Source of the DNA: a virus
Lineage: Duplodnaviria; Heunggongvirae; Uroviricota; Caudoviricetes
Virus record (IMG/VR): IMGVR_UViG_2565956762_000004
Length of the DNA stretch: 39,628 nt
Direction: 5' to 3' (one strand)
Shown: positions 1,102 through 39,628 of the stretch, one piece after another
Numbering within the stretch: position 1 is the first letter of the stretch
How the letters are laid out: every line of letters starts with the position of its first letter
Notes under the pieces: model-generated
The model's input: the letters and a program-made list of their open reading frames with translations, nothing else
Database searches by the model: none
Told to the model about the DNA's origin: nothing
Position numbers and translations under genes: made by a program

Positions 1102-1425
1102 ATGAAGTGGGTAGTAATTGACACGGTAATTCAACCTACATGCGGCATATCTTTTTCAGCCATATGGGGTGATATGAAAATGATCATCTGGTATCAATCT
1201 ACTATATTTCTTCCTCCTGGAAGTATATTTACACCGGTTAAGCCTGGTATTATCCTTGAGGATAAAGAATATCCTATTACTATTTATAACATTGCACCAT
1301 TCAACAAGAATTTATGGAGTTTACTCAAAAGCAGTCAAGAGTGTCCTCCAGGAGAAAGCGAAATAACAAATAAATGTTTACATAATAGTTGTATTATAAA
1401 AATATGCCCATATGGACTCAAGTAA
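1102..1425 (+). CDS. iraM: anti-adaptor protein IraM-like (107 aa)
   Basis: Length and N-terminus [22 protein letters not shown] match IraM as I recall it; sits beside the icd 3' remnant as in K-12. Confidence 0.6.
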
Positions 1426-1469
1426 TGGCCTTCATATAAATATTCTCGACATGATATTAATAATATCCA

Positions 1470-1504
1470 CATAAATAAAACAACGGGCGTGTTATACGCC
1501 CGTT
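1470..1504 (-). terminator. intrinsic terminator downstream of the icd 3' fragment (also 55 bp past the iraM stop, so probably bidirectional)
   Basis: Perfect 9-bp stem AACGGGCGT/ACGCCCGTT with 5-nt loop at 1482-1504; minus strand continues GTTTTATTTAT. Confidence 0.5.
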
Positions 1505-1530
1505 ACAATATTTAACACATGTAGTAATTA

Positions 1531-1695
1531 CATGTTCTTGATGATCGCATCACCAAACTCGCTGCATTTCAGCAGTTTAGCACCTTCCATCAGACGTTCG
1601 AAATCATAGGTTACGGTCTTCGCATTGATTGCGCCTTCCATACCTTTAACAATCAAGTCTGCGGCTTCAGTCCAGCCCATATGGCGTAACATTAG
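1531..1695 (-). pseudogene. icd: displaced 3'-terminal fragment of isocitrate dehydrogenase gene (about 54 codons, no 5' part)
   Basis: Minus-strand translation [54 protein letters not shown] matches the Icd C-terminus. Upper boundary is approximate. Confidence 0.75.
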
Positions 1696-2502
1696 ATTTA
1701 GAAAATTATTATATCCAATTGAATTAAAACAATTTTATGCTTAACGAACATCTAAACTTGTTTTTTTACCTTCACCATAACTCGCTGATTTTGTATAGTT
1801 TACGTAGCGTTTTGATAACCACTTTATGGCCAAATGGAGGTTCGCTTGAAAACTTCTGTTCTTATCCAGAAATTAATGGAAATTGACAAAACTGTACTAT
1901 TCGATGCGGACGTAGTGACCGGTGAGGAATGGTGGCCAACCCCGATTTCTCGTGTTTATCACAATCCGCCACATACTTATGTAGAATTTTAAATAGGTGA
2001 ACAATCTCAAAATGAATCTGACGAGCTAAGTGTTTATAGCGAATTATAAATTTGTGCACATCGAATGATGCAAATTAGAGATTTTGTGCAATCTAACGAG
2101 GGACTGAAACCTGAAAAAATTGTTTCGGAAATAAACATTCAAATTGAACGTATTAAAAAGTGATGGCTGAAGCAATTCTGAAACACTAATTCATATTCTA
2201 TGTTATTCATACCAATGTGGATTTAACTCCCACCAACCCACCAACCATGATTGGGCGGCGCAATAAACTAATATCAATAAAAACAGCAAGTTATCATTCT
2301 AAACAGAACACCAACGGGATGGAGGAGAGACAAAAAATATCCAATGAAACCGTAGCGCGTCAGCATTCAAAAGCGGGGTTTCTTATTTTTACTTCACCAG
2401 TAACAAATACACTGTATCATAACTACATAAAAATGATTGTTCTGACTCAGATGAATTTCTTACTCTTGTGGAATGTCACTTAATGTTATTTATAGGTAAA
2501 CA

Positions 2503-4392
2503 ATGAAATCCGAAACGCTAACCATCCAGCAAATTTTCCAAAATCAACGACAATATCGTGTTCCATTCTATCAACGTGCCTACGTATGGACGCAACGAAA
2601 CCAATGGTCAGCTTTGCTGGAGGATATCTTCGAAAAAGCACAGAGCCGACTTTCGGGAACAAAACCAACCCCTCATTTCCTCGGCGCGGTGGTGCTGGAA
2701 CCTCAACTCAAAAACAGCTTGTTAGGTGTAGATACCATACATATTATTGACGGCCAGCAACGTTTAACCACTCTTCAATATATTCTGGCATCCATTCGAT
2801 TATCATTGCGTGCTACAGGCCTTTCTGAACTGGAAGGGTTAGTATTGACTTGCTTGAAAAATACAAACGAAGCAACGATGAGAAATAAAAAGGTAGAATG
2901 CTTCAAACTGTGGCCAACTTTTCGAGATCAAACTCATTTTATTCAAAGTCTTAATGTTGATAATATTGACGATCTCCGTAATGTATTTTCTGATAGCTTC
3001 ACGCAACATGGTACGTTACGTAAACATTTCAACCACCCGCCGTCACTAGAGGCATTATGGTTTTTTACTGAAGCCTTTATAAAATGGATTAAAATAGAAA
3101 ACCACTCACCACAAGAAAATGCTGTAGCACTAATTGAGGCTGTCTTGACGGATCTGAAACTGGTAAGCATATTTCTCGAAGCTGAAGATGATGCCCAAAT
3201 AATTTTTGAAACATTAAATGGGCGAGGAGCGGAACTTCATGCAACGGATCTTATTCGCAACTATATCTTTATGTGCGCTGAGCATGAAAATATTAATGCT
3301 ATTGAATTATATGAAAATGAGTGGAAGATCTTTGAAGATAAATACTGGTCGGAAAAGCAACGCCGTGGACGTATTAATAAACCACGCATGGAGTGGCTTG
3401 TACATGCGACATTGCAATCAGAAAGGCAGCGTGAAATTGATCTGTCTCGCCTTTACAATGAGTATCGTGATTATGTAAGTAAGGACTTGCCTTCACAACG
3501 AGCAGATCTGCAAGTAAAGCGCCTCAAACAATATGCATCACAATATAAAGAATTGGTTGGTGGTTTTGGCACAACCCCCATCTCACACTTTGGACATCGC
3601 ATCGCAGCCTATGATGTGACGACACTCTATCCGCTTGCTTTGTTCATTTCGATAGCTAACATCGCCGATGATGAGAAAGCAGCCATGTATAATGATCTTG
3701 TCTCCTACGTAGTACGAAGATCCGTATGTGGCCTGACGCCAAAGAATTACAACAATGTATTTATGAATGTATTGCGACACTTGTCTAAAACGGAAATTTC
3801 CAGTGTTGAGTTACGTAATATCCTCAATAGCTTAAATGGCGAAGCCTCACGTTGGCCTGGGGACTCAGAATTTCTCAACGCTTGCATCAATGCTCCACTT
3901 TATCCTGGCAGGCTCGACGCACCGAAAATGCGCTCAATGTTAACGGAACTTGAAAGAGAACTTTGTCGCCAAGTGAAGACAGAAAAGCCTGATGTTCCAA
4001 ATCTTTCTAATCTCGATATCGATCATCTTATGCCTCAAAGTTGGTATTCCTGTTGGCCTCTCGAAAATGGTCATATGGTGACAAATTCAGATGCTACGGT
4101 AATGAACCAAATTGTTCTGTCTGGAACCGATCTTACCCCTGAACAGCTACTGGTAAGGAAACGGCAACAAGCGATAGCTACGTTGGGAAATCTAACTTTG
4201 CTTAACCTTAGCGTAAACCGTTCCGTTCAGAATGCTGTATTTCTGAAAAAACGTGATGCTCTCATCGTCCACACCAATCTACGACTGAACATACCACTTA
4301 TACTTAAGGATAAATGGGATGAGAGTGAAATACTGGAGCGAGGTAAAAAGTTGGGGGAAATTGCATTGAAAGTATGGCCAAAATACGATTAA
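2503..4392 (+). CDS. DUF262/DUF1524 (GmrSD-family) putative type IV modification-dependent restriction endonuclease, 629 aa
   Basis: N-terminal DGQQR motif (IIDGQQRLTTL) typical of DUF262; C-terminal DIDHLMP His-Me finger motif typical of DUF1524. GC below phage average. Confidence 0.7.
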   Translation: MKSETLTIQQIFQNQRQYRVPFYQRAYVWTQRNQWSALLEDIFEKAQSRLSGTKPTPHFLGAVVLEPQLKNSLLGVDTIHIIDGQQRLTTLQYILASIRLSLRATGLSELEGLVLTCLKNTNEATMRNKKVECFKLWPTFRDQTHFIQSLNVDNIDDLRNVFSDSFTQHGTLRKHFNHPPSLEALWFFTEAFIKWIKIENHSPQENAVALIEAVLTDLKLVSIFLEAEDDAQIIFETLNGRGAELHATDLIRNYIFMCAEHENINAIELYENEWKIFEDKYWSEKQRRGRINKPRMEWLVHATLQSERQREIDLSRLYNEYRDYVSKDLPSQRADLQVKRLKQYASQYKELVGGFGTTPISHFGHRIAAYDVTTLYPLALFISIANIADDEKAAMYNDLVSYVVRRSVCGLTPKNYNNVFMNVLRHLSKTEISSVELRNILNSLNGEASRWPGDSEFLNACINAPLYPGRLDAPKMRSMLTELERELCRQVKTEKPDVPNLSNLDIDHLMPQSWYSCWPLENGHMVTNSDATVMNQIVLSGTDLTPEQLLVRKRQQAIATLGNLTLLNLSVNRSVQNAVFLKKRDALIVHTNLRLNIPLILKDKWDESEILERGKKLGEIALKVWPKYD

Positions 4393-4414
4393 TGCAATTA
4401 ATAAAATGATTATA

Positions 4415-4438
4415 GCGGCCTTACATTAGTAAGGCCGC
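4415..4438 (+). terminator. perfect 10-bp hairpin GCGGCCTTAC-ATTA-GTAAGGCCGC, 23 bp after the restriction gene stop
   Basis: Perfect inverted repeat seen in sequence; no clean T-run, so termination role is uncertain. Confidence 0.4.
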
Positions 4439-4617
4439 AACTCACTATTAAATCCTTTAATTTGCATCAAGAACAGCACTGTCAGCCCTAGGCTCTCGGA
4501 CTTTGTACCGCTTATCTTGTCTTCAAAAATCAGCTCGCATCCTGCACAGTTCAACGCATTACGTTGTAGATCTGTGTTCTGGTCATTTATTGATACGCGT
4601 ACATAGCTAATAAGCAT
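4426..4617 (-). pseudogene. pin: truncated Pin/Gin/Hin-family serine DNA invertase (first ~40 codons only)
   Basis: MLISYVRVSINDQNTDLQRNALNCAGCELIFEDKISG matches the invertase N-terminus with the catalytic Ser; similarity is lost after ~40 residues and the ORF stops at 63 codons. Confidence 0.7.
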
Positions 4618-4672
4618 GTTAAATCCCCCCAAGTAAAAGCAGGAATGATGCCATTTGCTCGTTATTTCTGCA

Positions 4673-4698
4673 TTTTCATAAACGTTGGTTTGGGAGAA
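4673..4698. repeat. invertase crossover site, left (TTTTCATAAACGTTGGTTTGGGAGAA)
   Basis: Reverse complement TTCTCCCAAACCAACGTTTATGAAAA nearly equals the site at 6518-6543; palindromic AAACC/GGTTT centre as in gix/cix-type sites. Confidence 0.65.
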
Positions 4699-5145
4699 GG
4701 TTCTGCATTACCTGTTGGGGTGCCTGTTCCGTGGCCTTCAGCCACTCCGCCAACAGGCTGGCTGAAATGCAACGGTGCGCCTTTTTCTGCCGAAGAGTAT
4801 CCGGAACTGGCAAAAGTTTACCTGACAAATAAATTGCCTGATTTACGCGGTGAGTTTATTCGTGGCTGGGATGACAGAAGAGGAATAGATACTAGCCGTA
4901 GCTTGCTTTCATCACAGGGCGATGCCATTCGAAATATAATTGGTGCATTAGTGGATGTCAGGTTCAATACCTATCCTTCTGATTCTGGCGTTTTTACAAC
5001 CAGCGTCATCGGAGATGCTTCATCGGATTCAATTAAAGGTGGTTATGCAAAGCGAGTAACATTCGATGCTTCCAGAGTTGTTCCAACTGCAAACGAAAAC
5101 CGACCTCGTAACATTGCCTTTAATTATATCGTGAGGGCTGCCTGA
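4699..5145 (+). other. silent alternative tail-fibre C-terminal cassette inside the invertible segment
   Basis: Encodes GLGEGS at the crossover site, the same peptide the fibre gene encodes at 6518-6543 on the other strand; no plausible own start. Confidence 0.6.
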
Positions 5146-5753
5146 TGAATAAAGTTGTCTTAAATAACGAACTCATTGCCATAAAAGCTGGAGACATAAC
5201 CGTTTATAATTATAATGGTGAAACGCGGGAATATATTTCCACATCAACAGAATATCTTGCCATTGGTGTAGGCATTCCGGCATGTTCCTGTTTAGATGCT
5301 CCAGACTCATACAAAACTGGTTATGCAATTTGCCGTTCTGAAGATTTTAACTCATGGGTATATGTGCCAGACCATCGTGGTGAAATTGTCTATAGCACTG
5401 AAACAGGAGAATCAAAAGAAATCACAGCTCCGGGTGATTACCCTGATAATACAACCACTATCGCCCCGTTAACGCCATACGATAAATGGGATGGTGAGAA
5501 ATGGGTGACGGATACCGTGGCACAGCATAGCGCCGCAGTAGATGCAGCAGAAGCACAGCGCCAGTCGCTGATTGATACTGCAATGGCCTCCATCAGTCTG
5601 ATTCAACTGAAATTACAGGCCGGACGTAATCTGACGCAGTCAGAAACCAGCCGACTTAACACGGTGCTGGATTACATTGACGCGGTAACGGCAACAGATA
5701 CCAGCACCGCGCCGGATGTCATCTGGCCTGAACTGCCGGAGACTGCGCAATAA
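5145..5753 (+). CDS. tfa: tail fibre assembly protein (alternative-orientation set)
   Basis: 202 aa ending [13 protein letters not shown], the conserved Tfa C-terminal motif; start overlaps the upstream cassette stop (ATGA). Confidence 0.65.
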   Translation: MNKVVLNNELIAIKAGDITVYNYNGETREYISTSTEYLAIGVGIPACSCLDAPDSYKTGYAICRSEDFNSWVYVPDHRGEIVYSTETGESKEITAPGDYPDNTTTIAPLTPYDKWDGEKWVTDTVAQHSAAVDAAEAQRQSLIDTAMASISLIQLKLQAGRNLTQSETSRLNTVLDYIDAVTATDTSTAPDVIWPELPETAQ

Positions 5754-5922
5754 ACTCACCATCAATATATAAATCCCCCTGCTGTGTGTCAGCAGGGCAT
5801 TCTTTCCATATTAATGATGGATGGAATCTTCCTTCAGGATTAATTTCCGTTATCTCTTCTACTTTATTTTCTTCAATTCTTGCCCACATATGAACCTCAC
5901 CAGTAAATATAAACTGCGCCAT
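5719..5922 (-). CDS. short tail fibre assembly-like protein (currently expressed set)
   Basis: Start chosen at MAQFIF (ATG 5922-5920); converges on and overlaps the 3' end of the plus-strand tfa by 35 bp. Confidence 0.35.
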
Positions 5923-6820
5923 CTGCTCCGGCACCCGACTGACCCGTTGATGAATTAGGACATAATCCAGCACCGCCACCTCCAGGCCCAACTGCTGATA
6001 CCGCTTTTCCGTTAGCTGTATCTCTGAATGAACCTGCTCCTCCGGGGCCACCACCAGAACCACCATTACCAGCTCCCGATGCGGCAGACGCAATGGAACC
6101 TGGAGAACCTGGCCCAAGCGATGTATTAATTGTTCCCCCAACACCAACTGCGCCTAACCCTCCGGAAGGCTGGCCTCCGCTATAGCCTCCGGAAGCTGAC
6201 ATGTAAGTCCCGAAACTGCTCGAGCCACCATTTTTACCGTTTACAGAAATACCAGACACAGGCGCACCACCGGCACCAACCGTAATCGAAACACTGTTAA
6301 TACCAGTTAAATCTACCAGTCCCTCAGCAACTCCGCCCCCACCACCTCCTCCGCCACATGTAACGGCTGAAGCGGTTATTGAACCTATCCCTCCTGACGC
6401 ACCGCCACCAATAACTTTGACGTAACATTTTCTTCCTTTGCGCAACTCTTCAGGAACAGTCCAGCTTGTTACTCCAGCCGTTGTGAAGGCAACTAGATTT
6501 CTGAACCCAAATGAGCCTTCTCCCAAACCAAGGTTTTCGAGAGCCGTTTTCACCGTGCCATCCGATTTGATATCGCCAAACGGATTCTTGCGGCTTAACA
6601 GCAGCGCACGAAGCGCGGTAAGCAACTGGTCGTGCCGCCCCTTCTCCAGGCTGGCACCGGATGCCTCCACCACGCTGCAAAGCTCCTCCTGCAACATGTC
6701 AAAGTAGTCATCATCCAGATCGGTGGCAGGTGTGCCGGTCTGGGGGTTACCACGGGTAAAACCGTTCTTACCCGCGCCGAACTTATCCTTCTGCGCGGTT
6801 TTCGTGTCTATACGATGCAT
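5897..6820 (-). CDS. tail fibre protein (constant N-terminus fused to the currently selected variable C-terminus)
   Basis: 307 aa, glycine-rich repeats; N-terminus [46 protein letters not shown] typical of side tail fibres; crossover site inside the gene. Confidence 0.75.
6518..6543. repeat. invertase crossover site, right (TTCTCCCAAACCAAGGTTTTCGAGAG)
   Basis: Inverted copy of the 4673-4698 site; conserved half TTCTCCCAAACC identical. Confidence 0.65.
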
Positions 6821-6823
6821 GGA

Positions 6824-7408
6824 TTACTCCGGATATTTAAAAATTACGTAGGTATGCGACGGGCAGAGTTTGTTAAGCACACACTCCACAACGGTGTCGC
6901 CCCAGATACGCAGTGCGGAAGCACAGGGATCGCCACATGTCATCCAAGTGGTGTTGGTGGCAGCTGGCATGTTGACCTGCCAGTAATACCGCCATTCCGG
7001 CGCATTCACCGCGTCAGTACAGGCCGATGAGCAGGTGAACGTGCTTTTGTCGTATCGCGTGATGTTGGCATCTGGTCTGCCCAGGGCAGCAAGCTGTGCA
7101 AGATAAAAATCCTCGTTGATGCCGCCCACCAGGTTAACCTTCGCATCCAGCCGTTGCTGACGCTGGCGAAGGGTCTGCGTTCCCGCCGGAATACATTCAT
7201 CCGGCAGACCGCACAGACGCTCCCAGCGGTTTATCAGTTCAGTGGTGGTGCGCGGATCCAGCTCCCGCATCAGGGCATCCGCACGCTGATGAACACGGGT
7301 TAATGAAGGTGCCGCACCGGCAATCGCCGGATCGCTGGCTGACCACGCCGGACCGGGCGGCAACAGTGCCGATAACAGGCGGATGTAATCATCGTTTGTC
7401 ACGTCCAT
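6824..7408 (-). CDS. DUF2313 / Mu gp48-like tail protein (YmfQ-like, 194 aa)
   Basis: Size and position after a baseplate J-like gene; N-terminus [20 protein letters not shown] as I recall for YmfQ. Confidence 0.6.
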
Positions 7409-8457
7409 GAAATCGTCCCCAGTACCGCCAGTTCGTTTTTCGCAATGGAGATATTGTCCACCGGTGCAAGCAACTGATGGCTGTATTCCCCGTTCGCACC
7501 GGAAATCGCCTCACTGATACGCGATACCTTCAGTTCTCCCTGCGGATAACCATCACGCAGCAGGAACGAACGCAACTCCGCGGTAATGGCAGCCCGTATT
7601 TCTGGTGTGTCCGGCGTCACGCGGATATGAAAATCCACCGTATGTGCCACCGGCCTGAATACATACAAATCAGAGCCTGCCACCGGGGCCAGTGGCCCGA
7701 TATGTTGTCTTGCCGCCGTTTCCGTTGATTCTTCCGGAATGGGGTTAATCAGGTCACTGCTGGCTATCATCACACCGACAGTCCCCGTTCCCATCCAGTG
7801 TCGGTATGTCCATGCGCGGGTAATGCCGGGCACTTCTTTAGCCCAGACGACATAGTCCCCGTCAGCCCCGCCCTGAGGCGTCCAGTAATACCGCTCAATG
7901 ACGCGGGCGCGCCACGTTTCCAGCTCTTCAATATCAAATCCACCTGTCAGGGTATCTGCCTCGCCGGAAGACGGCAGACCATTAACCGGCGTGACCAGGA
8001 TTAATGACGTACCGTCGTCAGCGTTACCGACCGCGCCTGCACTTGAGCAGGCGATCGGCACGCGCAGGACACCACCGGTGCTGGTTGCATCGGCAGTTGC
8101 CGTGTACTGAACCAGGTCATCGCGCTGAATAACACTTCCGGCGGTCACCTTCAGGCCATCGCTGACACCTTCCCAGCGCATATACCCGCTGGCAGCCGTG
8201 GCCCCCTTGCGCGGACACCGTTTCATCGCAGCATGTCGCGCCAGCCAGGACTCATCGCACAGGTCAGGCAGCATGTTCATTGCCAGATAATCGATGTACC
8301 CGTAAACCGTATGCAGCGCCGCCGCATACACCTTTGCCCGCACGTCTTCATCCATGCGCCGGAGCGTGTCGCTGACGTCCAGCCTGGCGAATAAATCGTT
8401 ACGGAGCATACTGATATTTTCTGCCAGCGTCGGGCGCTGAAATTCACTGTCCGCCAT
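7399..8457 (-). CDS. baseplate J-like protein (Mu gp47-like)
   Basis: 352 aa in conserved baseplate order between gp46-like and gp48-like genes. Confidence 0.65.
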
Positions 8458-8872
8458 GCGTTATCGCACTCCACAGATCATCAAAAGAAATCATTACCGG
8501 TCCGTCACGACGCCAGAGAGTGATACTGTTACCCAGTTCATTAATCCCGGTGCGGCGGATATCCAGATCAATACGGGACACCACGCCGTCATCAATCATC
8601 CATTGCAGGCATTCGCGGATATACCCCCTTACCGTCTGCACCAGCTGATTGGTCAGTTTGCTGCGCTGAAGCAGCCACAGTCGGGAGCCGTAACGGTCAT
8701 TCTGTACCGCAGGCCAGGTATCCCCCCACCATCCCATCGGGACGTCGGCATTGTCATCAGGCTCCGCCCGCCGCCAGGTAAACAGGGAAATCACCACGGC
8801 GCGGGTCAGCGGATCCAGCGGTGCGCTGGCGCAGGTGCGTTTACCGTTCACCGTCAGCCACAGTTCCATCAT
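8444..8872 (-). CDS. baseplate protein, Mu gp46-like
   Basis: 142 aa, overlaps neighbours, conserved position. Confidence 0.5.
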   Translation of the reverse strand: MMELWLTVNGKRTCASAPLDPLTRAVVISLFTWRRAEPDDNADVPMGWWGDTWPAVQNDRYGSRLWLLQRSKLTNQLVQTVRGYIRECLQWMIDDGVVSRIDLDIRRTGINELGNSITLWRRDGPVMISFDDLWSAITHGGQ

Positions 8873-9417
8873 GCCTCCATCGCTTTATCAGGTTTGTCGG
8901 TGTTACTGCCCTGACCGTTCTCTCTGTGACGATGCCCGTTATAGGCAAGCCGCATCGCTGACATGGTGGTGCCGCCGGAGTCGCACAGGTCTTTCACCTG
9001 TCCGGTCACTTCAAGGTCCATTTCAAAACGTGCTTTAGGTGAATTGCGAAACGTGATCGTTTTACCTGCACCGTCCACCACGATCCCCTCCCGGGTCAGC
9101 GTCACGGACTGCCCCTGATCGTCATAGACAGCCACCTCACCCGTCTGCAGCCCTTTCAGGCGGTAGCGCCGGTCCGACACCGTAACAACCACCGCATGAG
9201 AACGGTCGCCATCCGGAAACAACACCACCGCTTCCGCACCGCTGTTTGCCCTTGCGGTAAAACCGTAGGGTTCAAGATGTTCAACCCCGGCTTTGGGTTC
9301 ACCGGCAATCAGGGACACATCCACGGTCTGACATTTCGTGGCGGCACTGATGCTTTTCACCACCGCCCGCCCAATCAGGCCGAGGAGTTGTCGCTGTATG
9401 GTTTCAATCGCCTTCAT
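8869..9417 (-). CDS. baseplate assembly protein V-like (spike, Mu gp45-like)
   Basis: 182 aa with N-terminus MKAIETIQRQLLGLIGRAVV typical of this family. Confidence 0.6.
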   Translation of the reverse strand: MKAIETIQRQLLGLIGRAVVKSISAATKCQTVDVSLIAGEPKAGVEHLEPYGFTARANSGAEAVVLFPDGDRSHAVVVTVSDRRYRLKGLQTGEVAVYDDQGQSVTLTREGIVVDGAGKTITFRNSPKARFEMDLEVTGQVKDLCDSGGTTMSAMRLAYNGHRHRENGQGSNTDKPDKAMEA

Positions 9418-10496
9418 CAGAACGGGTCCTCCTGTACTCTGGCTTTTTTCTTTTTCCGCGCGCCGGGGGCTTCGGGTTCAGGCAGATAAGCATCAGGTGG
9501 GCCGACACGGATTTCCGTCAGGGTGCCATTCTGGTCCTGAGTAAACGTGACTTCCGAGACAAGCAGTTCGGTATTGTCGAAACCACAGACCGGATCGAAG
9601 ACAATCACCCGCTGGTTGGGCTGCCACAGCGTACCGTTACCCTGTCGCCAGCCCTGCACCACATAGGTGGTTTCATCCGTCCGCGCCGCCCGTTGCCGGG
9701 CTTCAAAGTCAGCACGGGCAATACAGCCTGCCCCCGTGGCCTGCCCTGTCTGCCTGATATACATCGGACGGTAACGGGCAATAAATGCGTCCTCTGTGCG
9801 GGCCCGCAGCGCGGTGGTGGTGGCCTCACCGAAATCATCGTCGTTTCCGGCACGCTGCCCCGCCACCTGGTAAACTGAAAACCGCTCCCGGATACTCTTC
9901 TCCGTATCACAGGAAAGGATGTTTTCCCCAAGTACCAGCGCGGTATGTGCCCGCGTTGAGCCAATACCGCCAATCACCAGCCTGCCGTGCGGGTCGTCAT
10001 AAGCCAGCGCCTGCTGCTGACCGAGTATTTTGTTGATTACCTCAATCACCGTTTCACCGTGATCAGGCTGGACATCAGGAATAACACCCGACGGCGCACC
10101 GCTGTTCACCACCTCAATGCCGAAAGGCGCAGCAAGCGCCTGCGCAATCTGTACCAGCGATCGTCCGTTAAACTGTGTCGGTTCGGCTGCACAGTCAATC
10201 AGGTCAGCGGTCAGACTGCGTCCGGCAATACCGGTGCTGACCGAACGGGCATCGTAACGAACGGGCGTCGCCTCCACCCAGCCGGTGATCACCAGCTCAT
10301 CACCAATCAGCACCTCCACTTTTGAACCGTTTTTAATGCGCGGCTGAAGCGTGGTGATACCCTCATCTCCCGGCCACTGGCGGGTGATCTCCACACTGAA
10401 ATCCCGCGCCAGTCGTTCAACACCGGCACCGATGCGCACCGATGTCCAGCCATTCCACTCCCGGCCATTTACCCGTAGCGTGACGTTATCGTTCAT
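9417..10496 (-). CDS. tail protein, phage late control D / Mu gp44-like
   Basis: 359 aa, N-terminus MNDNVTLRVNGREW, position between DNA circulation protein and spike. Confidence 0.6.
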   Translation of the reverse strand: MNDNVTLRVNGREWNGWTSVRIGAGVERLARDFSVEITRQWPGDEGITTLQPRIKNGSKVEVLIGDELVITGWVEATPVRYDARSVSTGIAGRSLTADLIDCAAEPTQFNGRSLVQIAQALAAPFGIEVVNSGAPSGVIPDVQPDHGETVIEVINKILGQQQALAYDDPHGRLVIGGIGSTRAHTALVLGENILSCDTEKSIRERFSVYQVAGQRAGNDDDFGEATTTALRARTEDAFIARYRPMYIRQTGQATGAGCIARADFEARQRAARTDETTYVVQGWRQGNGTLWQPNQRVIVFDPVCGFDNTELLVSEVTFTQDQNGTLTEIRVGPPDAYLPEPEAPGARKKKKARVQEDPF

Positions 10497-18779: not shown

Positions 18780-19985
18780 TTACGCCACTGCAATCTTCAG
18801 CAGTTTGATGGCCTGCGAATCGACCAGCATGCCGCCGGTGCGTTTGGTGGTATAAAAACCGACAAACGGTTTATTGGTGTACGGGTCACGCAGAATGCGG
18901 GTGCCGATACGGTCAACGATGGTGTAACCCCGTTTGAAGTTACCAAATGCAATGGCTTTCGCATCAGCGGCGATATCCGGCATCTGTTCGTTTTCAGCGA
19001 TACCGTAACCCGCCAGAGAGGACGGCTGCCCCAGCTCCAGCCCCGGACGCCACAGATAGTTACCCTCGCTGTCTTTCAGCAGACGGATGGCAAACAGGCT
19101 GTTGTTGTTCATCATGAACTTCGCACCGGTGCGGTGTGCCTTACGCAGTGTGTAAATAAGTTTGATAATGGCGTCTGCGGTCACCGCAGTCGCTTCGCCG
19201 GATACAATATGCTGAAGTTTGCCGAACGCCCGGACCTTATCGGTTTCATCAGTGGATTCATACGCCAGGAACCCTTTCGGCTTCTTGGTGCCATCGCCTG
19301 AGGTAAAGGCAATTTCTTCCTGTTCGGCAAATTCGGTTGCCAGCTCGCTGTTGATCCAGGCCTCCACGTTGAAGAAGGCATCGTCCAGCATTTTCTGGGT
19401 GGCCTGCGGGTTGCCGTAGATTTCCCCCATGAGAGGTTCAATCAGCTCCAGTTTGGAGGTGGCAGTCTGGGATCGCGTATCCGTTTCCCCCACCCATCCG
19501 GAAGCCGTGCCGCCCAGATTCACCAGTTTTTTGTAGTCGGAACCGCCAACGGTGATCACCGTGGCTTCCTAGCGCATCACCACTTCATCTTTCAGCAGGG
19601 TGAGAATGTTGCGATCCAGCGCTTCCGGCACGGCATAGCCACCGTCTTCATCGGTGCCCACCTGCAATGCCTTACGCTCCAGATCGCGCAGACCATCTTC
19701 ACGGCCTTTACGCAGGAAGCCCACAAACGCTTCTTTATGCTCGGTGGCCAGTTTATTTTGCGCACCACCTGCCGGACGTTTCAGCTCAAGCAGCTCTTTT
19801 TCAAGATCGCTTTTGAGGTTTTCCAGCTCGCTGAGTTTCCCGTTCAGGGTTTCCACCTGCCCGGCAAGTTTGCCTTTTTCCTGCTCAATCGCATCCACGC
19901 GCTTGTCGTTCTTTGCTTTGAAGTCGTCAAACTTCTGCTGCAGCTCCTGCGCGACCTGTTCGACATCTTTAATATCTACCGCCAT
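18780..19985 (-). pseudogene. HK97-family major capsid protein gene interrupted by an in-frame TAG (19569-19571)
   Basis: Upstream ORF (coiled-coil delta domain) and downstream ORF (capsid body) share one frame; read-through gives ...DEVVMR*EATVITVGG... Confidence 0.7.
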
Positions 19986-26426: not shown

Positions 26427-27242
26427 ATGAAAGTGTTCATAAGTTGGTCTGGGCAAAGAAGTCAAGCTGTTGCAGAACTTATTAGCGACTGGCTGAAGTG
26501 TGTTATCCAAGCTTCGCAGCCATGGATTTCAACCAGAGATATTGATCGTGGCGCTATATGGTTCTCTGAAATTAATGATAAATTAAAAGATGTATCTGTC
26601 GGCATTGTATGTTTGACACAAGAAAATAAAAATAAACCATGGATTTTGTTTGAAACAGGAGCACTAGCAAAAGGACTTTCAACAAATAAAGTTTGTACAT
26701 TCTTGATTGACTTAAAACCAGAAGATTTAAAAGATCCACTTGCTCAATTCAATCACACAACGCCAAATAAAGAGAGTGTTTGGGAATTAGTAAGGACAAT
26801 AAACAATTGTCTTGTCGATAAATCTTTAGATGACCGTATTCTAAAGCAAGTTTTTAATACATACTGGGAGCAATTTGAAAACAATTTTAAACGAGCTTTA
26901 GATCAATACCCTCCAACTGAAGAAGTAAAACCACGTACTGAACAAGATCTTTTATCTGAAATATTACAAAACACTCGTTCATTAAATCAAAGGATTAGAG
27001 TTCTTGAACGTGATGCTACTATCAACTCCATAAATAGCCATATGAATTTAACTCCTGTAGAACAGAAGGATGTTTGGTATCTACAAAAACAGATAGATGA
27101 AATTATAAAGAATGGATTGCTTGACGAGGATGAAATAATATCATTCTTAGACAAATATGACATTCCTGAAAAAATGATTAGGAACCAAATAAAATACACA
27201 TTAAACCAACGATTATCTGAAAGTAATAAAAAAAAGAAATAA
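26427..27242 (+). CDS. TIR-like domain protein with helical C-terminal extension (start chosen at MKVFISWSG)
   Basis: KVFISWSG...W.S...I..G..W......L......GIVCLT.EN...PWILFETGA fits the bacterial TIR pattern; GGAG 6 nt before the ATG; low GC; opposite strand to neighbours. Confidence 0.6.
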   Translation: MKVFISWSGQRSQAVAELISDWLKCVIQASQPWISTRDIDRGAIWFSEINDKLKDVSVGIVCLTQENKNKPWILFETGALAKGLSTNKVCTFLIDLKPEDLKDPLAQFNHTTPNKESVWELVRTINNCLVDKSLDDRILKQVFNTYWEQFENNFKRALDQYPPTEEVKPRTEQDLLSEILQNTRSLNQRIRVLERDATINSINSHMNLTPVEQKDVWYLQKQIDEIIKNGLLDEDEIISFLDKYDIPEKMIRNQIKYTLNQRLSESNKKKK

Positions 27243-36808: not shown

Positions 36809-37069
36809 ATGAGGTTATCAAAAATGCTTCAAATGCTGACACTTGAGGAATGGGCTGCGGAAAAATACAGAAGTAATCCTCCAAGCGTGTCCACATTGCG
36901 TCGTTATGCTAAGCAGAATTTATTTTGTCCACCGGCAATGAAACAAGGTCGACTATGGCGAGTGCGTGAGGACGCAGAGTTAGTTGGGGAATTAGTTACT
37001 CCTGTCATCAAGAAAAATGATTCTATTATTCTACAAAGGATTTTAAGTAATGGCAGCCAGACCACGTAA
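36809..37069 (+). CDS. excisionase
   Basis: Small basic protein immediately upstream of and overlapping int. Confidence 0.55.
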   Translation: MRLSKMLQMLTLEEWAAEKYRSNPPSVSTLRRYAKQNLFCPPAMKQGRLWRVREDAELVGELVTPVIKKNDSIILQRILSNGSQTT

Positions 37070-38177
37070 AAATAATGTTTCAGTCCCGAACTTGTATCCG
37101 CTTTATAGTAGAAAAGTAAATAAAGTCTATTGGCGATATAAACATCCTGTGACCGGGAAGTTTCATTCTTTAGGCACAAACGAAGCTGAAGCCATTGCTA
37201 TTGCCACTGAGGCAAATTCACGCCTGGCTGAGCAAAGAACCCGGCAGATTCTGGCTATCAGTGACAGGATCGCAACCAGCAAAGGAAAAGCAATCACAAC
37301 GTCAACCTGGTTAGATCGCTATCAAGCAATCCAGGATGACAGACTGGAAAGTGGCGATATAAAGCTAAACACCTATAAACAGAAAGCCAAACCAGTATCC
37401 TTGCTCAGGGAACGAGCAGGAATGAAATTAATTTCATCAGTTGATGTAAGGGATATAGCACAATTACTTGACGAGTATATCACTGCCGGGCAACCGAGGA
37501 TGGCGCAAGTAGTCCGCTCCGTTCTAATTGATGTATTCAAGGAGGCACAACACTATGGGGAAGTCCCTCCGGGCTATAATCCAGCACTGGCAACCAAACA
37601 ACCCAGAAGAAAAATTACCCGACAACGGTTAAGTCTTGAAGAATGGCAAAAAATCTTTGATATCGCAGATGCACGCCATCGTTATATGGGGAATGCCATG
37701 CTGTTAGCACTGGTTACCGGCCAACGGTTAGGTGATATCTCACGTATGAAATTTAGCGATATTTGGGATGATCATCTTCACGTCATCCAAGAAAAAACCG
37801 GGAGCAAAATCGCCATCCCGCTTTCCCTTCGCCTCAATGCAATTAACTGGAGTTTACGCGATGTAGTAGCCCGCTGCCGTGACTATGCAGTCAGCCCATA
37901 CCTTGTACATTTTTTTCGTACTACTTCACAGGCTGAACGTGGCGCGCAAGTAAAAGCCAATACATTGACGATGAATTTCAGTAAAGCGAGGGATTTAGCA
38001 GGCATTGACTGGGGTGAAGGTTCGCCCGCCACATTCCATGAACAAAGATCTTTATCTGAGCGACTTTACGAAGCTCAGGGCGTCGACACCCAAAAACTTC
38101 TGGGACATAAATCGCCTAACCAGACAGCTAAATACCATGATGATCGTGGTAAGGAATGGGCAAAAATCAAGGTTTGA
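37050..38177 (+). CDS. tyrosine integrase (lambda Int family)
   Basis: 375 aa; C-terminal catalytic region LLGHKSPNQTAKYHDD with H/R/Y residues. Confidence 0.85.
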   Translation: MAARPRKNNVSVPNLYPLYSRKVNKVYWRYKHPVTGKFHSLGTNEAEAIAIATEANSRLAEQRTRQILAISDRIATSKGKAITTSTWLDRYQAIQDDRLESGDIKLNTYKQKAKPVSLLRERAGMKLISSVDVRDIAQLLDEYITAGQPRMAQVVRSVLIDVFKEAQHYGEVPPGYNPALATKQPRRKITRQRLSLEEWQKIFDIADARHRYMGNAMLLALVTGQRLGDISRMKFSDIWDDHLHVIQEKTGSKIAIPLSLRLNAINWSLRDVVARCRDYAVSPYLVHFFRTTSQAERGAQVKANTLTMNFSKARDLAGIDWGEGSPATFHEQRSLSERLYEAQGVDTQKLLGHKSPNQTAKYHDDRGKEWAKIKV

Positions 38178-38292: not shown

Positions 38293-39189
38293 ATGCAGTT
38301 GTATGCCTTACGTGTGTTAATGAGACCGCGCGATCCAGACCTCTTTTCGAAAGGAGCTGTTCAGAAAGATATCTCTCATTTTGAAAATGCTATGGTTGTC
38401 GCTGCAAAAAATTTACACATGACGTCATCAACACCTTCCGTTCATAAGAAAACTAGTTACACCCTGAAATTGAGCATAAAACCTACTGATGGTGTTATGG
38501 CTGGAGTCATATCAAAGCTGCAAAAGATTAAAGGACATGATAAAGACTTTCGAGAGTACGATGTAGACAACTATCCACCTATCGTATGGATTTGGGACAA
38601 AGTAGAGCAGGTGTTACTGGTTGAGAGGAAAACCGCTGTTTTCAAGGATGCGCAACAAGTTGCTAAAGCATTCGAAGATCTAGCCAATAACGACTATTTG
38701 GCTCAGTTAGGACTTAGAATATTTATAGAGCCTTGTCTTGAAATGGAAGATTTTTGGTCAGAATACCATAGGCTTCAATTTATCGACAAAGTCAGCTTTA
38801 CGCTGATTACTCCGAATATCTTCGGAAGCAGTAAGCAAGCGTTAACCAATGATTTACGGAAGCTTGAAAAAGATACCAATGCAAATACTGTGACCACTAT
38901 TTTTGAAAACAAAGATGGCAATTTGAAACTCAAAGGTTCTCATTGGGCTGAGACTCTTGTTGACTGGGTCAAAGATGGTGGCGGGTCATGGTTGATTAAA
39001 GGACGTAAGACACTCAAGTCAAAATCTACTACGGTATCCAGTAATCAGACAGCCAAAATCGTGCTGATCGAAGGTGAGATATCAGAAATTGAACTTGATG
39101 GCTACTCAGCAAATGATATTAAAGAGATCATAGCATTACATCAAAACAGGTATACGTTCAAAAATGCAAAATCTAACTGTCTGGATTAA
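38293..39189 (+). CDS. hypothetical soluble protein, 298 aa, first gene of int-proximal cargo cassette
   Basis: AGGAG Shine-Dalgarno 7 nt before ATG; low GC; no motif recognised (no HExxH). Confidence 0.6.
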   Translation: MQLYALRVLMRPRDPDLFSKGAVQKDISHFENAMVVAAKNLHMTSSTPSVHKKTSYTLKLSIKPTDGVMAGVISKLQKIKGHDKDFREYDVDNYPPIVWIWDKVEQVLLVERKTAVFKDAQQVAKAFEDLANNDYLAQLGLRIFIEPCLEMEDFWSEYHRLQFIDKVSFTLITPNIFGSSKQALTNDLRKLEKDTNANTVTTIFENKDGNLKLKGSHWAETLVDWVKDGGGSWLIKGRKTLKSKSTTVSSNQTAKIVLIEGEISEIELDGYSANDIKEIIALHQNRYTFKNAKSNCLD

Positions 39190-39628
39190 AGCTATAGCTA
39201 CCTTCTTTTTGTGCTTAGCATTAGCATCGACTGATAAAACCATTTATACCTTACTTGAGCAGGCTTCTGCTGGAGTAATAGGTTCAATACTTGGAGGTAT
39301 TGCCGCAGGTATCTCCGTTATCTTCGGAATTTTGGCTGTCATTAATAAGGGCGAGAAAAGCACAGACTTTACGGACTATTTAGATAGTTTAGAATTAGAT
39401 TTGAAATTACTGGTCATGTGTCTGGCAGTAACAATCTTCCTTCCCTATTTACGTAATTATGACATACCACTAGTAAATTATCCTCAGCACGAATTTATCC
39501 CTTCTAAAGGCAAGCTATTTACTGCTTTAGAACTTTTTGCTATCGTGCTATCTCTTAACCTCATTGCAGAAGTGATTAGCTGCATGATTTTAGTGGTTAA
39601 AAAAAGTTTCAAAATTGAATCAAAGTGA
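39164..39628 (+). CDS. small membrane protein with about four TM helices, 154 aa
   Basis: Four hydrophobic segments; start overlaps the upstream gene by 26 nt; stop is the last codon of the window. Confidence 0.55.
   Translation: MQNLTVWIKAIATFFLCLALASTDKTIYTLLEQASAGVIGSILGGIAAGISVIFGILAVINKGEKSTDFTDYLDSLELDLKLLVMCLAVTIFLPYLRNYDIPLVNYPQHEFIPSKGKLFTALELFAIVLSLNLIAEVISCMILVVKKSFKIESK

Follow-up and report, generated by a model that had tools for sequence, protein, structure and literature searches.

A predicted GmrSD modification-dependent restriction endonuclease gene next to a truncated invertase gene at the right end of an e14-family icd prophage

The prototype of these enzymes, GmrS/GmrD of EcoCT596, was reportedly described by Bair and Black in 2007. 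The historical two-subunit GmrS/GmrD form was a cloning artefact (PMC4437046, PMC12373910); the resequenced single-chain form of the EcoCT596 enzyme is AF493796. According to a passage of Machnicka et al. 2015 (PMC4619093), gmrS/gmrD of CT596 are prophage-borne, and a phage invertase (fragment) and tail-fibre assembly ORFs adjoin them. Eco94GmrSD (ECSTEC94C_1402, WP_000834395; He et al. 2015, PMC4437046) cuts glc-5hmC and 5hmC DNA with stimulation by ATP and leaves unmodified DNA uncut, loses its activity when D507, H508 or N522 is mutated, and restricts T4 lacking ip1 about 10^6-fold; its gene lies on an SfII-like prophage, straight after the tail-fibre genes. UTI89 GmrSD (UTI89_C2960) is reported to be IPI*-insensitive; no activity was seen in vitro with the purified protein, and T4 is not restricted by strain UTI89 (PMC4437046). 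Inhibitor sensitivity and substrate range vary among GmrSD variants (PMC12373910). The model of the reaction cycle comes from the homologue BrxU (E. fergusonii, BREX island of pEFER; PMC8565348), which, like GmrSD, performs nucleotide-dependent cutting of modified DNA but accepts wider substrates (also 5mC) and is inhibited by Ip2, not by Ip1. McrA (EcoKMcrA) of the K-12 prophage e14 likewise belongs to the type IV modification-dependent HNH enzymes and serves in prophage-mediated exclusion; unlike GmrSD, it has an unrelated N-terminal recognition domain, a length of 277 aa and 5mC (C5mCGG) as its target. The gmrSD enzyme and its prophage setting by tail-fibre genes and an invertase fragment are already published and known.

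The DNA analysed here (hereafter, the window) is a stretch of 39,628 nucleotides from the IMG/VR record IMGVR_UViG_2565956762_000004, and represents an e14-family prophage of roughly 40 kb in icd, with an HK97-type head and a Mu/SfII-type contractile tail. The icd 3'-end duplicate (icdC pseudogene; 1528-1695, minus strand) was assigned with Pfam Iso_dh, NCBIfam NADP-IDH, the alignment with K-12 icdC and the RefSeq annotation of the identical SW4848 locus. It consists of the last 54 codons (positions 363-416 of 416 of the NADP-IDH profile) and is the bacterial side of the right prophage junction (attR); the homology to K-12 ends at about 1699-1702, with the end point of icdC being shared. The annotated intE and xisE genes lie at 36824-38177. 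The window does not reach the int-side junction with icd, and intact icd is located just outside the window in the identical SW4848 record. Thus, insertion at the icd 3' end, a second copy of the icd 3' segment at the far junction and IntE/XisE, as expected of an e14-family icd prophage, were all found. The gene order at the equivalent place of K-12 is pinE-mcrA-icdC-iraM-ycgX, and the original prediction of the mcrA slot was right on this point: mcrA and the gmrSD gene of the window share one slot, which lies between pin and the prophage end on the icd side, although pinE beside mcrA is intact in K-12, unlike the pin stub of the window. The G+C content of the gmrSD region is about 40% versus 55-58% in the tail genes; gmrSD is a low-G+C accessory gene at the right prophage end. 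As judged from the loci compared, the prophage end beyond the tail fibres in e14/SfII-type prophages is a swap slot for restriction genes, in which mcrA, gmrSD, a type II R-M system with a GIY-YIG protein, and gmrSD with a type ISP enzyme were seen.

The gmrSD gene (2503-4392, plus strand) encodes a predicted single-chain type IV modification-dependent restriction endonuclease of 629 aa. Profile search with Pfam detected GmrSD_N/DUF262 (PF03235) at residues 8-256 (E = 1.7e-33; full profile, 1-199) and GmrSD_C/DUF1524 (PF07510) at residues 451-619 (E = 3.8e-19; profile positions 1-137 of 138), both far over the gathering scores, and the mREase_IV model of PADLOC matched end to end (1-629 of 629, 1523 bits), so that the proposed GmrSD-type type IV restriction gene was confirmed. 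The stretch IIDGQQRLTT (residues 81-90, in the N-terminal DUF262/ParB-like NTPase domain), or IIDGQQRLTTLQ when residues 81-92 are considered, fits the (I/V)(I/V)DGQQRLTT motif of DUF262 (ParB/Srx-like NTPase), as defined previously (PMC4619093). IDHLMPQ (residues 506-512) fits the (E/D)HxxPQ motif of the DUF1524 His-Me/HNH nuclease, with the downstream Asn present; D507, H508, C517, N522, N528 and N535 are all at the published numbering, and the ExEx4ExK stretch was also found. When compared with the sequences in Suppl. Fig. S1 of He et al. 2015, 628 of the 629 residues match Eco94GmrSD (the sole difference being R316 in the window versus H316), and likewise 628 of 629 match EcoCT596 GmrSD (L611 in the window versus Q611). 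Eco94GmrSD also shares with the window protein its length of 629 aa, D507/H508/N522, and the location on an SfII/e14-like prophage directly beyond the tail-fibre genes. The original prediction had the family right, but its label of GmrSD-like is too weak, as a single residue separates the protein from each of two characterised GmrSD enzymes; on this alignment, we regard the gene as gmrSD itself. BrxU shares DUF262, DUF1524 and the DGQQR and DHxxP motifs with the window protein, but is very distant in sequence and is plasmid-borne within a BREX locus. Among PDB sequences searched with phmmer, one weak DUF262 relative was obtained (9jfl, E = 4.7e-7); no structure closer than 9jfl was found, and BrxU was not retrieved. 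The main value of the assignment is in annotation: the RefSeq entry of the window protein (WP_000834396.1), labelled merely "DUF262 domain-containing protein", is one residue from a biochemically defined GmrSD, while the knowledge of the GmrSD mechanism is unchanged by the present results.

From the domains, the catalytic residues and the near-identity to two assayed enzymes, the window allele is predicted to restrict phages with modified DNA. GmrSD would recognise phage DNA in which 5-hydroxymethylcytosine or glucosyl-5-hydroxymethylcytosine takes the place of cytosine, as is the case in T-even phages; the N-terminal ParB-like DUF262 domain would bind or hydrolyse nucleotide, whereupon the DNA would be cleaved by the C-terminal His-Me (HNH-type) DUF1524 domain with D507, H508 and N522. 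A lysogen would thus exclude T-even-type phages unless a matching inhibitor, such as IPI* of T4, is injected. Activity across the GmrSD clade is, however, not guaranteed, because the purified UTI89 homologue, with 43 residue differences (29 of them within the first 186 aa; 93% identity for both protein and DNA), is inactive in vitro. The gene of the window could likewise be intact yet inactive, or have another specificity, and not restrict glc-5hmC phages; the lack of T4 restriction by strain UTI89 and the variation in inhibitor sensitivity and substrate range among GmrSD variants are in line with such a reading. We consider this very unlikely, since the window allele differs by one residue from each of two active enzymes and by 43 from that of UTI89, the residues at both variable positions (R316 and L611) each occur in one of the active enzymes and also in UTI89, and the ORF is intact, with the exact protein sequence on at least 1000 contigs. 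Taken as a whole, a restricting GmrSD on an e14-family icd prophage, carried in an old module with a single truncation of pin (see below), is with high confidence the best reading. For strains with gmrSD (54 complete genomes with the icd-type locus and 310 with any allele), the exclusion of T-even phages without a matching injected inhibitor would be expected, and this bears on the prediction of host range for phage therapy.

Convergent with gmrSD, a Pin/Gin/Hin-type serine invertase stub is located at 4426-4617 (minus strand), assigned by its match to the N-terminal part of Pfam Resolvase (profile positions 2-54 of 145) and by alignments with K-12 pinE; its start codon is the ATG at 4617, which the ORF tool extended to a TTG at 4632. 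The first residues match K-12 PinE (184 aa) at 39 of 41 positions, including the active-site Ser region (YVRVS). The homology to pinE covers codons 1 to about 45 (4482-4617), with DNA homology ending at about 4482-4496. Similarity to intact phage invertase genes begins at this same place, and what follows in the stub, as far as the stop at 4426-4428, is read-through of unrelated sequence. The original prediction that the invertase is cut short at the cassette edge, with similarity lost after about 40 codons, therefore held. Approximately 139 codons (about 420 bp) are missing, comprising most of the catalytic domain and the entire DNA-binding domain, so that the catalytic domain of about 140 aa and the C-terminal helix-turn-helix of a complete invertase (about 184-190 aa) are not found. 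By its sequence, the stub is thus judged a gene remnant rather than a member of the Pin/Gin/Hin/Cin invertases, and RefSeq labels it "recombinase family protein, missing C-terminus". The general possibility that a frameshift from sequencing or assembly hides a full-length pin, which had been raised with the original prediction and for which nothing further speaks, is extremely improbable and already refuted by the sequence, from which no full-length invertase can be recovered: only 33 bp separate the stops of gmrSD (4392) and the stub (4426), which means that some 420 bp of pin have no counterpart here, and the structure is at least 99% identical in 54 complete genomes and is found in about 250 more genomes of the other lineages, the same junction thus recurring in hundreds of independent assemblies. 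Between the two convergent genes lies a G+C-rich hairpin with a perfect 10-bp stem (4415-4438; GCGGCCTTAC-ATTA-GTAAGGCCGC). The RNA fold of 4385-4470 has a free energy of -24.2 kcal/mol (z = -5.3; none of 200 shuffled sequences was as stable), and each of the three gmrSD lineages has kept the hairpin, the stem differing by a single substitution in UTI89 and likewise in ARS-C101. It was not reported by a simple terminator scan because the plus strand lacks a clean T-run; nevertheless, the hairpin is likely to be a transcription terminator.

The 806-bp stretch from attR to gmrSD was examined for a real small gene or RNA. The outer 540 bp of this stretch (1700-2237) is sequence of icd-type prophage ends, in which a dead gene is found, namely the pseudogene of a 113-aa hypothetical protein (1834-2189, plus strand), recognised by DNA alignment and translated comparison with intact relatives. 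The intact homologue WP_224271434.1 is annotated in strains GPEC206-621 and EC190486. The lesions are GAA to TAA at 1990-1992, TAA at 2047-2049, and a 2-bp insertion leading to TGA at 2161-2163, of which the first stop is common to MDR_56, EC28 and H22 in the translated comparison. Two short upstream ORFs had been left unassigned at 1845-2018 (57 aa) and 2066-2164; their actual positions are 1834-1992 (52 aa, stop at 1990-1992) and 2065-2163, and both fall inside this pseudogene and are its fragments. Neither the short ORFs nor the intact homologue gave a significant match in Pfam, NCBIfam, PADLOC or PHROGs, the only signal being a sub-threshold NCBIfam match to VC1380_fam (E = 9.7e-5, 22.5 bits; cut-off, 100). 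An ORF of 88 aa (2217-2483) was rejected as a gene, being unconserved with indels of 1, 3, 9 and 10 nt between lineages. A permissive Rfam scan of 1400-4760 gave nothing besides two sub-threshold matches, to tpke11 at 1454-1523 and to a snoRNA model within gmrSD, both of which were dismissed.

Adjacent to the pseudogene, a decayed copy of the ssrA (tmRNA) 3' end with about 90 bp of adjoining prophage-end sequence (2219-2337, plus strand) was detected by blastn, which aligned it at 73% identity with the true 3' end of UTI89 ssrA and its flank (L004, 297-414); weak matches to annotated ssrA genes were also seen. In a six-way alignment, the copy of GPEC206 retains GGGTTCAACTCCCGCCAGCTCCACCA, which falls in the columns occupied by the annotated ssrA 3' end of UTI89. 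The Rfam scan gave no match to the relic, the fragment being probably too short and too decayed. By these alignments, the copy is considered an attachment-site relic at the outer edge of the gmrSD module. Between the relic and gmrSD, a candidate sigma-70 promoter is found at 2393-2420 (plus strand; TTCACC, 16 nt, TATCAT), about 83 nt before the ATG. Promoter-like sites in the region were no more numerous than in shuffled sequence in a consensus scan; the -10 element and its surroundings are kept in all three gmrSD lineages, whereas the rest of the leader has indels. We infer from the sequence that this promoter would allow expression of gmrSD in the lysogen.

The history of the module was considered from six loci and BLAST counts, and not from a phylogeny. 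Among 5426 complete E. coli genomes, gmrSD was present in 310, in three lineages. Comparison with e14-like prophages of other strains, as had been suggested, located the junction: gmrSD and pin are joined identically, base for base, in all three lineages, in prophages at icd, at ssrA (UTI89) and beside paoD (ARS-C101), with gmrSD diverging from the window allele by 6.8% in UTI89 and 2.6% in ARS-C101. The UTI89 gene thus resembles that of the window in length, module and pin junction, but its prophage resides at ssrA and carries a GIY-YIG protein and a DinI-like pseudogene as extra cargo outside gmrSD. Because the identical junction occurs in three lineages at three chromosomal sites, the truncation would be one old event, occurring once and before the divergence of the gmrSD alleles. 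The gene would then be part of a single old module consisting of the ssrA-type att relic, the leader, gmrSD, the hairpin and the first 45 or so codons of pin, and this module would circulate among related prophages. Of the original proposal that the cassette replaced the 3' part of the invertase, the loss stands, but the replacement in place probably does not. According to that proposal, an incoming gmrSD cassette displaced, right at this locus, mcrA and two-thirds of pinE (the 3' part), as the presence of pinE-mcrA in K-12 e14 at precisely the place of the pin stub and gmrSD in the window, and the resumption of homology on both sides (icdC and pin codons 1-45), might suggest. The same breakpoint at ssrA and near paoD, with gmrSD alleles 6.8% and 2.6% different, argues against it, as do the ssrA-type att relic at the outer edge, which points to the end of an ssrA-integrated prophage as the origin, the absence of any sign of a former mcrA in this lineage, and the type II R-M system found in that position in other icd-type prophages. 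In-place replacement of mcrA and the pin 3' end thus probably did not occur, and we regard it as unlikely; judging from the loci compared, the truncation is most likely older than this prophage and arrived with the whole prophage arm. When deposited phage genomes were searched for a gmrSD gene with an intact invertase beside it, gmrSD was found in none of them, with matches to only the pin 5' end and the crossover site.

Beyond the stub, a 24-nt inverted repeat with 92% complementarity forms the right-hand (4680-4703, pix-like) and left-hand (6513-6536) crossover sites of a tail-fibre segment. The segment 4680-6536 is exactly flipped in strain 1190, with flanks 99.97% identical, and exact flips occur between prophages with flanks of 99.97-100% identity; the orientation was one way in 20 complete genomes and the other in 5. 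Two inverted crossover sites and both orientations, as in a Pin-type invertible tail-fibre segment (P-segment), where such sites flank alternative tail-fibre C-termini, were thus observed. In a search for an invertase acting in trans from the same genome, with a chimeric query of gmrSD and the pinE 3' part, the SW4848 chromosome gave one extra match and that of strain 1190 two, which may belong to either half of the query and to any position, and in two strains with the flipped segment no extra match was found on the chromosome. The Gin enhancer is reportedly placed, as the title of a paper has it, in the same part of the invertase gene as that of Hin. In Hin, the enhancer spans 65 bp within the invertase gene, at a distance of about 100 bp from hix (PMC3798978). 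If placed as in Hin, a Fis-dependent enhancer would lie at about 4530-4595, inside the retained pin fragment. Across lineages 3-7% apart, the divergence of the stub is equal to or lower than that of gmrSD, with a single 1-nt gap at about 4488 (UTI89), near the breakpoint. We tentatively suggest, as a possibility less probable than its opposite, that about 135 bp of pin are kept in every gmrSD module for a cis-acting recombinational enhancer, and that the segment may switch with an invertase supplied in trans from another prophage or a plasmid. If so, the prophage would have traded its own invertase for a defence gene while keeping host-range switching by a borrowed enzyme.

The open reading frame at 2503-4392 (+) encodes a protein of 629 aa, which matched the whole of the Pfam profiles GmrSD_N (formerly DUF262; E = 1.7e-33) and GmrSD_C (formerly DUF1524; E = 3.8e-19) and was covered end to end by the PADLOC type IV restriction model (1523 bits); the DUF262/DUF1524 fusion protein of the original prediction was thereby borne out. 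The published sequences of three comparison proteins (PMC4437046) were compared with the window protein. The sole difference was at residue 316 from Eco94GmrSD (R here, H there) and at residue 611 from CT596 GmrSD (L here, Q there), and 43 positions differed from the UTI89 protein. D507, H508 and N522 (needed for cleavage by mutagenesis), as well as C517, N528 and N535 (also tested in the published mutagenesis), were at the published positions, and the DGQQR nucleotide-binding motif, the IDHLMPQ nuclease motif and the ExEx4ExK stretch were all found. The one-residue differences, the catalytic residues and the motifs show that the window protein is GmrSD itself. At least 1000 publicly available contigs have its exact sequence, and its RefSeq name is only "DUF262 domain-containing protein". 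Earlier papers already describe the enzyme and its activity, its place on a prophage beyond the tail-fibre genes, and the fragment of an invertase gene beside it; the overall observation was confirmed, as a known feature. New but minor are the exact limits of the gmrSD module, the single pin breakpoint common to three integration sites, the relic of ssrA and the identity of the short ORFs upstream of gmrSD.

To the right of gmrSD, on the opposite strand, is the stub of a serine invertase gene (pin; 4426-4617), 39 of whose first 41 residues, counted from the ATG at 4617, are those of K-12 PinE. At the DNA level, the stub ceases to be homologous to pinE and to intact invertase genes of phages at 4482-4496, near codon 45 of the 184, and the invertase is indeed cut short at the cassette edge. 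Of 5426 complete E. coli genomes, 310 had gmrSD DNA, in three groups: group A (54 genomes; at least 99% identity to the window over 1700-4493, with homology from 1700; example, the window, at icd), group B (about 31 genomes; 95-99% identity, with homology from about 2238; example, ARS-C101, beside paoD), and group C (about 221 genomes; about 92% identity, with homology from about 2276; example, UTI89, at ssrA). Outside gmrSD, the ARS-C101 prophage, which adjoins paoD and a truncated LysR gene, has a type ISP restriction-modification enzyme, and the UTI89 prophage has a DinI-like pseudogene and a GIY-YIG protein. The gmrSD stop codon, the following hairpin and the pin stub were colinear in all three groups with an identical breakpoint, and between-lineage identity was 96-97% for the stub and 93-97% for gmrSD. 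Since breakpoint and junction are the same in all groups, the truncation of pin appears to be one event that predated the divergence of the gmrSD alleles; the truncated pin would have moved together with gmrSD among related prophages. Replacement in place of the invertase 3' part by the cassette, as originally proposed, and of mcrA with it, was rejected because of this identical breakpoint at three integration sites, and a sequencing error as the cause of the short invertase was rejected on the same ground.

The window is E. coli DNA; it was 100% identical to strain SW4848 (NZ_CP107284.1) over the compared stretches 1400-5200 and 4292-5092, and its ORFs matched the RefSeq coordinates of SW4848 2831330-2870957 along the full length. 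The gene order is reversed relative to K-12: ycgX (1-405), iraM (1102-1425) and the icd 3' duplicate (1528-1695, minus strand) are followed by the prophage, which occupies the rest of the window (the far icd junction is outside). Its tail genes are of Mu/SfII type and its head is of HK97 type; it also has genes for lysis and regulation, with xisE and intE at 36824-38177. K-12 has at the same place the defective e14 element, in the order pinE - mcrA - icdC - iraM - ycgX; therefore, the placement in the "mcrA slot" was correct. Rfam gave a sub-threshold hit to an sRNA family, tpke11 (1454-1523, minus strand; 23.7 bits, gathering score 43), which overlaps the hairpin directly downstream of the remnant of icd and is probably the icd terminator. 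The major capsid gene (18780-19985, minus strand) has an in-frame stop at codon 139, and the prophage in this strain is therefore probably incapable of virion production.

Window 1700-2337, between the icd junction and gmrSD, was 88-91% identical to two strains, GPEC206-621 and EC190486, in which the same icd junction is followed by genes for a type II restriction endonuclease, a C5 cytosine methyltransferase and a LEM-3-like GIY-YIG protein (5780-9636 of the GPEC206-621 locus, L007; 7041-10490 of the EC190486 locus, L008), gmrSD being absent. With these genes, and with the type ISP enzyme in ARS-C101, this slot at the prophage end works as a swap site for restriction genes. Both strains have an intact 113-aa gene, the product of which gave no significant match in protein family searches; in the window its frame is broken by stops at 1990-1992 (common to three other gmrSD-bearing strains) and 2047-2049, and a 2-bp insertion leads to a stop at 2161-2163. 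Thus, the two short ORFs of the original prediction are present, the first at 1834-1992 and not 1845-2018, and they are not unassigned: both are fragments of the broken 113-aa gene. The region corresponding to 1700-2300 was 601-633 nt in other strains, the extra length appearing as additional short repeat copies in a translated comparison.

Within this icd-integrated prophage, window 2219-2337 holds the 3' end of ssrA (tmRNA) in decayed form, together with about 90 bp, and is 73% identical to the real ssrA end in UTI89. A similar degenerate copy was also found upstream of gmrSD in UTI89 and ARS-C101, and the GPEC206 copy retains GGGTTCAACTCCCGCCAGCTCCACCA in the alignment columns of the annotated UTI89 ssrA 3' end. 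From the sequence, we infer that the copy is an attachment-site relic; on account of this decayed ssrA end, gmrSD can be read as having once been the outermost gene of an ssrA-integrated prophage.

Next to the pin stub, 24-nt inverted repeats (4680-4703 and 6513-6536) bound alternative tail-fibre ends. In strain 1190, the segment 4680-6536 was exactly inverted and the 3.3-kb flank including gmrSD and the stub was 99.97% identical; among complete genomes, the segment beside the gmrSD-stub junction was oriented as in the window in 20 and oppositely in 5. These orientations indicate that inversion still occurs without a resident Pin, presumably by an invertase supplied in trans. The 65-bp Fis-dependent enhancer of Hin and its crossover site are about 100 bp apart; that of Mu is inside the invertase gene (PMC3798978). 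By comparison with these systems, the predicted enhancer position falls inside the retained pin fragment, and the enhancer may be the reason for its retention.

For activity, literature on enzymes one residue from the window protein was used. Eco94GmrSD cuts T4 DNA (glucosyl-5hmC) and T4gt DNA (5hmC) and spares unmodified DNA; ATP and other nucleotides stimulate it, and modified-cytosine pairs spaced 17-23 bp are its preferred substrate. Its restriction of T4 lacking ip1 in vivo is about a million-fold, and wild-type T4 largely evades it via the injected inhibitor IPI* (PMC4437046). BrxU, a distant homologue, is an intertwined dimer that comes apart upon nucleotide binding, and nucleotide hydrolysis must precede cutting by its HNH-type domain (PMC8565348). 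T4 has several injected inhibitors, each paired to a different GmrSD variant (PMC12373910). Between the window and UTI89 enzymes, 29 of the 43 residue differences were within residues 1-186 (window 2503-3060), and the differing codons gene-wide were 67 synonymous and 43 non-synonymous; N-terminal diversification in an arms race with injected phage inhibitors would be consistent with the sequences. The G+C content of gmrSD (about 40%, versus 55-58% in tail genes) fits an accessory gene. Across lineages, a promoter-like site (2393-2420) was kept, the scan count of such sites being no higher than in shuffled sequence, and a strong hairpin (4415-4438) follows gmrSD; expression of gmrSD is predicted from these two elements.

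At the other end of the prophage, just beyond intE, two genes that overlap each other (298 aa and 154 aa; 38293-39628, plus strand) occupy the position that lit, ymfE and ymfD have in K-12 e14; their products had no match in Pfam, NCBIfam, PADLOC or PHROGs, and they are orphan cargo. Between the holin and Q antiterminator genes, on the opposite strand, a gene for a 271-aa TIR-domain protein (26427-27242, plus strand) matched the PADLOC candidate defence family TIR-TM (E = 1.7e-57), Pfam TIR_2 (E = 3.7e-7) and PHROG 13899, and is possibly the second defence gene carried by this prophage.
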